Virus record (IMG/VR): IMGVR_UViG_2541047794_000002
Span: 1-51,929 of that record
From: a virus
Lineage: Duplodnaviria; Heunggongvirae; Uroviricota; Caudoviricetes
Direction: 5' to 3' (one strand)
Length of the DNA stretch: 51,929 bases
This document shows, one piece after another, positions 27,767-28,277 of the stretch (position 1 is the first letter of the stretch; the number at the start of each line of letters is the position of its first letter). Under the pieces are notes generated by a model. It did not search any database and was not told the DNA's origin. It saw nothing but the letters and a program-made list of their open reading frames with translations. The translations under genes and the position numbers were made by a program.

Positions 27767-28069
27767 TTATTCAGATTCTTTGGCTTTACGCCGCTGGAGT
27801 TCTTCACGAGCGACGGCTACGAGTTGCCCGATTTCCTCCGCTGCCTTGATGCCGATTTGTTCGACCTTAGCTAAGGCATCCAGTGAAGACACGAGGGGAT
27901 TTTCTCCGCTTCCTTCTGCCTGGCGGCGGGCGATCTCACCGCGCATGGCGGTTACTATGAATCCGGCGTTGCTTTCGCCGTCCAGTTTTACGGATTCCAT
28001 GCCCTCCATAACATCGTGGGGAACCCTGATCGTTGTCATTTGCGATTTTGCATTTTTGTATACAGACAT
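27767..28069 (-). CDS. Putative small DNA-binding regulator (possible repressor) of the element, divergent from the replication operon
   Basis: 90-100 aa (possible start at internal Met 28039); MTTIRVPHDV... N-terminus resembles a ribbon-helix-helix beta-strand; faces a repeat-rich intergenic region. Confidence 0.5.
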   Translation of the reverse strand: MSVYKNAKSQMTTIRVPHDVMEGMESVKLDGESNAGFIVTAMRGEIARRQAEGSGENPLVSSLDALAKVEQIGIKAAEEIGQLVAVAREELQRRKAKESE

Positions 28070-28277
28070 AGTTAATCACCAATTTGTTATGTGTATATCA
28101 CTATACACAAAAGTGAGATATAAAAACACTTGCAATGTATATCACCACAATATAATGTATATCTCACATTATGGTCGCTATGTATCTCACAATGATCGAT
28201 TCATAAAAACGACGAAACCCGGCAGTGCGCGAACACTAACCGGGCTTCTAACCAAACCGTTAAACGAGGTAACGATT
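28070..28277. promoter_or_regulatory. Divergent promoter/operator region of the element with repeated TGTATATC(T)CAC-like motifs
   Basis: GTGTATATCACTATACAC (palindromic), AATGTATATCACC, AATGTATATCTCAC and CTATGTATCTCAC within about 130 bp. Confidence 0.5.

Follow-up and report, generated by a model that had tools for sequence, protein, structure and literature searches.

A candidate ribbon-helix-helix repressor–operator switch with exchangeable specificity cassettes and a predicted antisense RNA in Gram-negative phage satellites

A small divergent gene and five phased repeats

The viral record IMGVR_UViG_2541047794_000002, which we analysed over its full length of 51,929 nucleotides and refer to as the window herein, is an Escherichia coli prophage with an embedded phage satellite, a phage-inducible chromosomal island (PICI) that spans approximately positions 25214–36240. 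Within the island, a gene for a 100-residue protein (27767–28069, minus strand; ATG start, GGTGA Shine-Dalgarno sequence) is transcribed divergently from a rightward operon. The first gene of this operon encodes a 121-residue protein resembling the cell-division inhibitor Icd (28278–28643, plus strand; NCBIfam NF033153, 77.6 bits, and annotation by the Prokaryotic Genome Annotation Pipeline (PGAP) in locus L001), and the remainder (28636–31299, plus strand; Pfam PF13973, PF08706 and PF19263) comprises three small open reading frames (ORFs), a DUF4222 gene (29252–29551) and a D5-type primase/helicase gene (29548–31299). From the Icd-like gene through the primase, these genes abut or overlap. 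A preliminary description made from the sequence alone had placed a small minus-strand ORF divergent from the primase operon, and had proposed it to be a ribbon-helix-helix (RHH)-like repressor acting on repeated motifs in the roughly 200-bp intergenic region; the ORF is present at the coordinates it gave, and the intergenic region measures 208 bp (28070–28277).

The small protein matched the NCBIfam model of the YlcI/YnfO N-terminal family (NF041551) over residues 8–49 with 70.5 bits against a cutoff of 30, and an identical protein in NZ_CP039403 was given the YlcI/YnfO name by PGAP. According to NCBIfam, this N-terminal domain family is common to the window protein and to two uncharacterised proteins of E. 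coli K-12, YlcI of the DLP12 prophage and YnfO of the Qin prophage. K-12 YlcI has 64 residues, has no counterpart of the C-terminal helix described below and is encoded in the late region of the lambdoid prophage DLP12, upstream of nohD; a pairwise BLAST comparison between it and the window protein was not significant. PHROGs placed the 100-residue protein in a family of unknown function. No Pfam model scored above threshold, the best being the RHH-type PF07704 (Rv0623-like) with 16.3 bits against a cutoff of 28.3, and there was accordingly no significant match to a curated RHH family model; among 50 homologues, 39 gave weak matches to PF07704, with a best E of 0.00098. Foldseek and PDB sequence-profile searches were uninformative, the latter returning no RHH match for the protein and no profile match of any kind for its N-terminal domain. 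A weak match of residues 45–86 to the Hef helix-hairpin-helix domain (E = 0.008) was not adopted, as the structural model has a single long helix there. The family is small, with 72 representatives at E ≤ 0.001 among 1.84 billion, and occurs in two architectures, one of approximately 100 residues and one of approximately 55–65 residues that consists of the RHH domain only. A tblastn search of 50,697 deposited phage genomes returned no match to the 100-residue protein.

The AlphaFold2 model, which was based on a 50-sequence alignment and reached a predicted local distance difference test score (pLDDT) of 82, has an extended N-terminus up to residue 17, helices at residues 18–27 and 34–54, and a long helix at residues 58–99. 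When the isolated N-terminal domain was modelled alone, the same topology was obtained (pLDDT 83). Monomers only were modelled, and the β-strand is unpaired in these models. The N-terminal domain, approximately residues 9–54 with the strand at about 10–17, is thus predicted to have the strand-helix-helix topology of approximately 45 residues that characterises RHH proteins (CopG/Arc/MetJ), which agrees with the RHH-like N-terminus suspected initially and now attaches it to a named, if uncharacterised, family. Sequence conservation is uneven along the protein. The most variable columns are 11–14 and 16, which lie between the invariant residues S9, R15 and P17, while residue 44 onward, including the long C-terminal helix, is nearly invariant.

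The intergenic region contains five 11-mers of the form rTG-TAT[A/C]T-CAC, whose centres are spaced by 22, 22, 22 and 23 bp. We refer to these as O1 (GTGTATATCAC, 28091–28101), O2 (TTATATCTCAC, 28113–28123), O3 (ATGTATATCAC, 28135–28145), O4 (GTATATCTCAC, 28157–28167) and O5 (ATGTATCTCAC, 28180–28190); O2 is on the minus strand and is the sole inverted copy, and the other four are on the plus strand. TATMTCAC, the exact core, has seven copies in the window, and a single stretch of 97 bp (28094–28190) accounts for five of them. Shuffled sequence is expected to hold 2.28 copies per window and approximately 0.004 per 97 bp, which corresponds to a local enrichment of about a thousand-fold, and a chance pattern was rejected on these figures. 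The repeats reported earlier are real, and number five rather than four. The palindrome noted within them (GTGTATATCACTATACAC, 28091–28108) is also present and consists of O1 together with a TATACAC element that is kept in nearly all related islands.

Promoters were placed by conservation across loci, not by a sigma-70 scan. When 26 loci were anchored on the −35 hexamer of the putative rightward promoter, P_R, the conserved features were the hexamer TTGAC(A/G), a 17-bp spacer, a TAAnnT −10 hexamer, an upstream A-tract and a TATACA element, and the blocks between them varied. In the window, the −35 is TTGCAA (28130–28135, plus strand; TTGACA/G in most relatives) and the −10 is TAATGT (28153–28158, plus strand), at the same distance as the TAAnnT hexamer of the relatives. 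A candidate leftward promoter for the RHH gene has its −10, TATAGT (28100–28105, minus strand), within the conserved TATACA element between O1 and O2. O1 overlaps this candidate −10 and its start site, O3 fills the P_R spacer directly after the −35, O4 overlaps the P_R −10 and the predicted start, and O5 lies in the early leader of the rightward transcript.

Site types, cassette exchange and a predicted antisense RNA in related islands

All loci that we compared have the same layout: int, alpA, in some cases accessory genes, the RHH gene on the minus strand, the Icd-like gene on the plus strand and, further along, DUF4222, the primase and a single-stranded DNA-binding protein gene. The layout is seen in E. 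coli islands at several attachment sites, where the query was matched in 844 of 5,426 complete genomes, and also in Xenorhabdus, Photorhabdus, Enterobacter, Erwinia, Serratia, Phytobacter, a record titled Martelella alba, Yersinia, Klebsiella-type contigs and one metagenome. The sites keep constant positions across 26 related islands, whose hosts are E. coli, Yersinia, Enterobacter, Xenorhabdus, Photorhabdus, Erwinia and Serratia; conservation of the repeats, the lack of which the preliminary description had named among the grounds for refutation, was thus observed. In each locus, the variable blocks between the promoter elements are copies of one short motif at offsets of approximately 12, 35, 57, 80 and 102.

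The motif itself differs between lineages, in step with protein residues 11–16. Islands whose β-strand reads MTT(I/L/V)R(V/I) carry TAT[A/C]TCAC, as in the window, and those with LTTVRV carry GTGTGTTTCA. The strand SLTARI is accompanied by TGTAAG[A/C]C, QLNARF by GAATACC, QISIRI by TGTGATTCA, MISTRV by GTGTAGTC and LKNIRI by GTGTGTAWWT. A cross-scan of 25 loci was largely block-diagonal: the best 8-mer of each locus recurs 3–6 times at home (4–5 in most) and 3–6 times in loci of the same type, but 0–2 times in most loci of other types, with cross-matches of 3–4 between related types that have similar GTGT-rich cores. Within a type, the motif is kept even though the spacers diverge, as seen for the MTTIRV type in E. 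coli, Yersinia, Enterobacter and the metagenome and for the LTTVRV type in E. coli and Xenorhabdus/Photorhabdus. All site types have an outer TG...CA in common and differ in the central 5 bp, which fits a symmetric dimer that would make constant outer contacts while a variable ribbon reads the centre. Because residues 11–14 and 16 co-vary with the central bases across 25 loci of approximately 10 types, and because both are swapped as one cassette, DNA specificity appears, on this indirect evidence, to be set by the side chains of the β-strand.

Since AlpA is a DNA-binding regulator of these islands, the repeats were also considered as AlpA-binding sites, and this was rejected: the sites do not track AlpA. 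The AlpA proteins of the window and of locus L022 are 100% identical, yet their RHH protein types and sites are different, L022 being of the KQISIRI type, and the same holds for the pairs L002/L004 (AlpA 98% identical) and L023/L027 (97%). Conversely, L003, L004 and L005 have their type and sites in common, while their AlpA proteins are just 29–30% identical. The comparison between the window and L022 is particularly sharp. The two are approximately 100% identical over 27400–27996 and 28262–28621, and their divergence is confined to about 28000–28260, a stretch of approximately 260 bp that holds the first ~24 codons of the RHH gene, the operators, the promoters and part of the neighbouring RNA hairpin described below. 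Because the divergence has these limits, the specificity region and its sites are exchanged as a single ~260-bp cassette, as in phage immunity regions. This would give at least 8–10 'immunity types' among Gram-negative PICIs.

As a correction to the preliminary description, not all of the intergenic region is operator DNA: the right ~80 bp is predicted to be the gene of an antisense RNA resembling SymR. On the minus strand, the complete Rfam SymR model (RF01809) matched 28283–28211 at a permissive threshold (35.3 bits, E = 0.0011), and four other loci have sub-threshold matches of 28.8–38.7 bits in the corresponding position. The predicted cis-antisense RNA (28200–28283, minus strand, ~80 nt) would form two hairpins followed by a U-rich tail. 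The minus strand of this interval folds with a minimum free energy of −34.6 kcal/mol (z = −5.7) compared with −19.3 kcal/mol (z = −1.6) for the plus strand, and the minus-strand fold was better by 5–20 kcal/mol in 13 of 13 loci tested. We built a covariance model, R1, from 13 sequences and searched 26 islands, 13 of which are not represented in the model, amounting to 241 kb. Exactly one copy was found beside the RHH gene in every one of the 26 islands; the truncated locus L020 had no match. The single further match in the 241 kb was in the Enterobacter ludwigii island L024, where the expected copy at 1189–1277 is accompanied by a second RNA-like element 3' of the RHH gene (2338–2424, 60.7 bits).

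In the R1 alignment, itself fitted to the model, paired cells make up 86% of the total, compared with 74% in shuffles and 31–44% with slid partners. Compensatory changes occur in 15 of 28 pairs, and the observed score was reached by none of 500 shuffles. Many pairs are G-U, which would be A-C if read on the opposite strand. The predicted 5' end is 3 nt past the ATG codon of the Icd-like gene (28278–28280). The loop of hairpin 1 carries an anti-Shine-Dalgarno sequence, and hairpin 2 is GC-rich and is followed by the U-rich tail. A −10-like hexamer, TATGCT in the window (28291–28296, minus strand) or variants of it, is conserved 7 nt upstream of the RNA start, inside the Icd-like ORF. The predicted RNA thus has the structural features of SymR, namely a cis-antisense position over a translation start, two hairpins and a terminator. 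An Rfam scan of the island at E ≤ 1 gave no C4 or isrK immunity RNA, and the SymR-like match was the only relevant one.

The model island EcCICFT073 (E. coli CFT073, NC_004431.1, 1377930–1388700) carries a shortened form of the module. Its protein has 59 residues and contains the RHH domain only (20474–20653 of locus L029, equivalent to NC_004431.1 1380473–1380652); an in-frame loss of residues ~50–92, and with them of the long C-terminal helix, has apparently joined this domain to the last ~9 residues. GTGGGCCACAC repeats are found at the operator positions, together with the antisense RNA (R1, 51 bits) and an Icd-like gene. The module genes stand under the recent locus tags C_RS30120 and C_RS30125, which suggests that they were added after the original annotation. 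Loss of the C-terminal helix may bear on the absence of an observed repressor in this model.

A proposed two-layer switch and competing readings

We consider it likely that the 100-residue protein binds the five sites and represses the rightward operon. The repressor–operator switch first suggested for this locus has gained in silico support from the placement of the sites on a conserved promoter, their co-variation with the β-strand and the exchange of both as a cassette. In the mechanism that we propose, the protein would act as a dimeric RHH repressor whose β-ribbon reads the central 5 bp of 11-bp sites of the form rTG-N5-CAy. The five sites, approximately two helical turns apart over 100 bp, would cover two back-to-back promoters. 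Occupancy of O3, O4 and O5 would block P_R and switch off the Icd-like gene, the small ORFs, DUF4222 and the primase, so that replication and the potentially toxic Icd-like protein would be kept silent in the integrated island, and occupancy of O1 and O2 would autoregulate the repressor gene. The C-terminal helix probably links dimers on neighbouring sites along one face of the DNA, or else offers a surface to an inducer. As a second lock, the ~80-nt cis-antisense RNA, transcribed from the same strand as the repressor gene, would pair with the Icd-like message at its Shine-Dalgarno sequence and start codon, so that leaky transcripts are not translated, making the Icd-like gene the likely target of both layers of control.

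Induction may come by read-through or antisense transcription from alpA or from a late promoter of the helper, or via an antirepressor. Helper late transcription is expected to traverse a helper-embedded island (PMC10111431); it would converge on the repressor gene and read into the replication operon, and would need to pass a terminator-like palindrome at 26836–26871. Many relatives have AntA/Bro-N genes in the interval from alpA to the repressor gene, which makes an antirepressor route possible too.

A broader proposal, which we find plausible though short of probable, is that Gram-negative PICIs, EcCICFT073 included, carry an overlooked two-layer immunity switch. It would combine an RHH repressor, with a shuffled cassette of β-strand and five phased operators in at least 8–10 types, with an antisense RNA of the SymR kind over the gene that heads the replication operon. 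Rather than simply activating the island, AlpA or late transcription from the helper would override the switch, whether by convergent transcription, by read-through or by means of a Bro-zone antirepressor. The C-terminal helix would be an oligomerisation surface or the target of an inducer, and EcCICFT073 may have looked repressor-less through loss of this helix and because its small genes were missing from the original annotation.

Several observations weigh against the mechanism that we propose. AlpA overexpression alone induces EcCICFT073 (PMC6092414), which implies that the repressor is either bypassed or not dominant, at least in an island whose copy has no C-terminal helix. Two RHH genes of the same LTTVRV type lie approximately 5 kb apart in opposite orientation, with similar operators, on one contig of Xenorhabdus vietnamensis (NZ_MUBJ01000038.1; L015, 1706–8990, and L017, 6324–13608), and the types therefore need not enforce incompatibility. 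A consensus scan of 27650–28400 for sigma-70 promoters and terminators gave no promoter at its default thresholds; the P_R −10 is weak, the leftward promoter has no convincing −35, and the promoter of the antisense RNA consists of the conserved −10-like hexamer only, with no good −35. The SymR match is also below the gathering score of 61 that marks curated membership of that Rfam family.

One competing explanation is that the RHH protein is mainly the antitoxin-like partner in a toxin–antitoxin (TA) addiction module, with the Icd-like protein or a small downstream minus-strand gene as toxin and the repeats serving TA autoregulation only. Many of the closest structural matches are indeed RHH antitoxins (Rv0298, TacA, MazE, ParD, RelB and HicB), the neighbouring gene carries a cell-division-inhibitor annotation, the RNA that overlaps it is similar to SymR, a type I antitoxin, and a small ORF lies just 3' of the RHH gene in L002, L004, L027 and EcCICFT073. 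However, the RHH gene has no co-transcribed neighbour of toxin size in the window, L003, L005, L006, L022 or L023, and the Icd-like gene is divergent and outside the RHH operon. The regulated operon moreover continues into DUF4222 and the primase, and the five phased sites span the rightward promoter as well as the candidate promoter of the RHH gene itself, and we regard an addiction module as unlikely. Somewhat less likely still, in our view, is an activating or architectural role, in which the protein, bound to the repeats, would for example help AlpA or RNA polymerase at P_R, or excision. Three of the five sites lie in the P_R spacer, over the −10 and start, and in the leader, which are repressing positions by established promoter logic, and P_R has a near-consensus −35 at the correct spacing, so that an activator should be unneeded.

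The repeats could alternatively be bound by another factor, such as AlpA, the primase or an initiator using them as iterons, or a partition protein, with the link to the small protein being incidental. Short repeats near replication genes are typical of iterons and AlpA is encoded 1.3 kb upstream, but this idea is largely refuted and in our view very improbable. Identical AlpA proteins occur with different repeats and 29–30%-identical ones with identical repeats; the iterons of the island are a different motif (GGTAGAGG, 31308–31541) downstream of the primase; and a ParA-type gene is absent from the ORFs of the window, so that roles as replication iterons and as a partition site were both rejected. 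The repeats and the RHH N-terminus are, in addition, swapped together as one cassette with sharp borders. Least credible of all is a reading of repeats and ORF as remnants without function, or as a pattern that arose by chance in AT-rich intergenic DNA. The failure of the sigma-70 scan and the shortened gene of EcCICFT073 would suit such decay, yet the gene of the window is intact, its core motif is strongly enriched locally, and seven genera or more keep the site positions despite diverging spacers; the comparative data refute it.

A repressor of the RHH type that controls the rightward operon, the reading that we prefer, has its closest functional analogues in the immI region of phage P22, the omega repressor of plasmid pSM19035 and Stl/Rpr of Gram-positive PICIs, none of which has detectable sequence homology to the protein, as judged for Stl/Rpr from Pfam and the fold. 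P22 immI encodes two repressors, Mnt and Arc, and an antisense RNA, sar. The window protein has no Pfam match to Arc; five 11-bp sites phased at 22 bp stand here in place of the single operators of P22, the operon controlled is a satellite Icd-like/primase operon rather than an antirepressor gene, and there are many specificity types. The omega repressor (PDB 1irq, 2bnw) binds contiguous heptads, in contrast to 11-mers 22 bp apart, has no long C-terminal helix and serves plasmid copy-number and partition control. For the RNA, a parallel in phage immunity is P1 immI, which consists of c4 RNA, icd and ant. As there, and as in the P4 CI RNA system, which is detected by the Rfam C4 and isrK models (PMC10111431), an antisense RNA would control an operon whose first gene is icd-like. 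RNAs of the C4/isrK type have been reported in some PICI 'Bro zones' (PMC10111431). The RNA of the window differs in being cis-encoded, in overlapping its target, in being combined with a protein repressor and in having no C4 or isrK match.

Another parallel is SymR of the symE–symR locus (RF01809; PMC1891008). Both SymR and the predicted RNA are ~77–80 nt long with two hairpins, lie antisense to the beginning of a gene that may be toxic, cover its start codon and Shine-Dalgarno sequence and begin a few nucleotides inside the ORF, and the full-length model is matched in five loci. The SymR promoter lies inside the ORF (PMC1891008), a position that we infer here too. Unlike in symE–symR, the target is an Icd-like gene and not SymE, and the partner is an RHH repressor and not LexA. 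Stl and Rpr of the Gram-positive PICIs, which include the Staphylococcus aureus pathogenicity islands (PMC6092414), are encoded divergently from the satellite excision/replication operon and keep the island silent until a helper phage is active; likewise, the RHH gene is divergent from the replication operon of its PICI, predicted operator sites lie at the divergent promoters, and the presumed role is the same. The differences are the RHH fold and the presence in these islands of the activator AlpA. Pfam assigned the protein to no helix-turn-helix or repressor family, and no Stl or Rpr sequence was compared with it directly.

That Gram-negative PICIs are described as activated by AlpA, with no dedicated repressor, was a correct premise of the preliminary description: in the founding paper, a global repressor is termed 'unclear' and the islands are described as unidirectional (PMC6092414). 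The regulators in SatelliteFinder are AlpA, MerR and Stl (PMC10085698). In the later census and in the paper on helper-embedded PICIs (HE-PICIs), the regulation module contains AlpA/MerR/Stl only and the minus-strand gene is hypothetical or unmentioned (PMC10085698, PMC10111431); the latter paper notes a single direction for every 'non-hypothetical' gene and also treats C4/isrK-type immunity RNAs (PMC10111431). We found no description of the module in the literature, although most subscription journals were outside our coverage and an earlier description is possible. An RHH repressor–operator switch with exchangeable specificity cassettes and an antisense RNA would be new for satellites described as lacking a repressor. 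The locus provides a concrete candidate repressor with mapped sites, natural specificity variants, a natural cassette swap and a shortened form in a model island. If the proposal is true, the module would explain the silence of the toxic Icd-like gene and the primase; it would also offer a set of orthogonal small repressor–operator pairs, and it adds a predicted, unannotated small RNA family beside the RHH gene.

The host prophage and remaining island genes

The island splits the lambdoid major capsid gene of the prophage, with which it is co-oriented; the halves lie at 24938–25183 and 36241–37029, coordinates carried over from the PGAP annotation of NZ_CP039403. It has its own E-like capsid gene (32511–33551) and D-like decoration gene (33561–33902). 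Because of its Pfam matches, a capsid gene split as in NZ_CP039403 and iterons after the primase, we assign it to the published HE-PICI type in the 11capE configuration (PMC10111431). The iterons, approximately 12 copies of GGTAGAGG in both orientations just 3' of the primase, mark the expected PICI replication origin. Two Rfam miRNA matches at 31310–31392 are spurious and correspond to iteron palindromes.

At the left end, integrase (25295–26581) and AlpA (26574–26810) are encoded on the plus strand, both identified as ORFs with Pfam matches, and a gene for a 178-residue membrane protein (26880–27416, minus strand) lies between alpA and the RHH gene. The int, alpA and membrane-protein genes of L022 are the same as those of the window. 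The palindrome at 26836–26871, which has a perfect 14-bp stem and is terminator-like both ways, separates the end of alpA from the convergent membrane-protein gene. An Rfam scan of the window returned no match to the int-alpA RNA motif (RF02996); the Erwinia psidii island L014 has a near-threshold match to it at 7021–7087 (34.8 bits against a gathering score of 35.8).

The late zone contains a second AlpA-like helix-turn-helix gene and a small-terminase gene, which occupy 33912–34256 and 34449–35000. In NZ_CP039403, whose island is 98% identical, an internal stop has led to annotation of the small-terminase gene as a pseudogene, but the gene is intact in the window. An accessory gene on the minus strand (35690–36451), which encodes a 253-residue protein of the DUF2971 family, lies at the island's right end.

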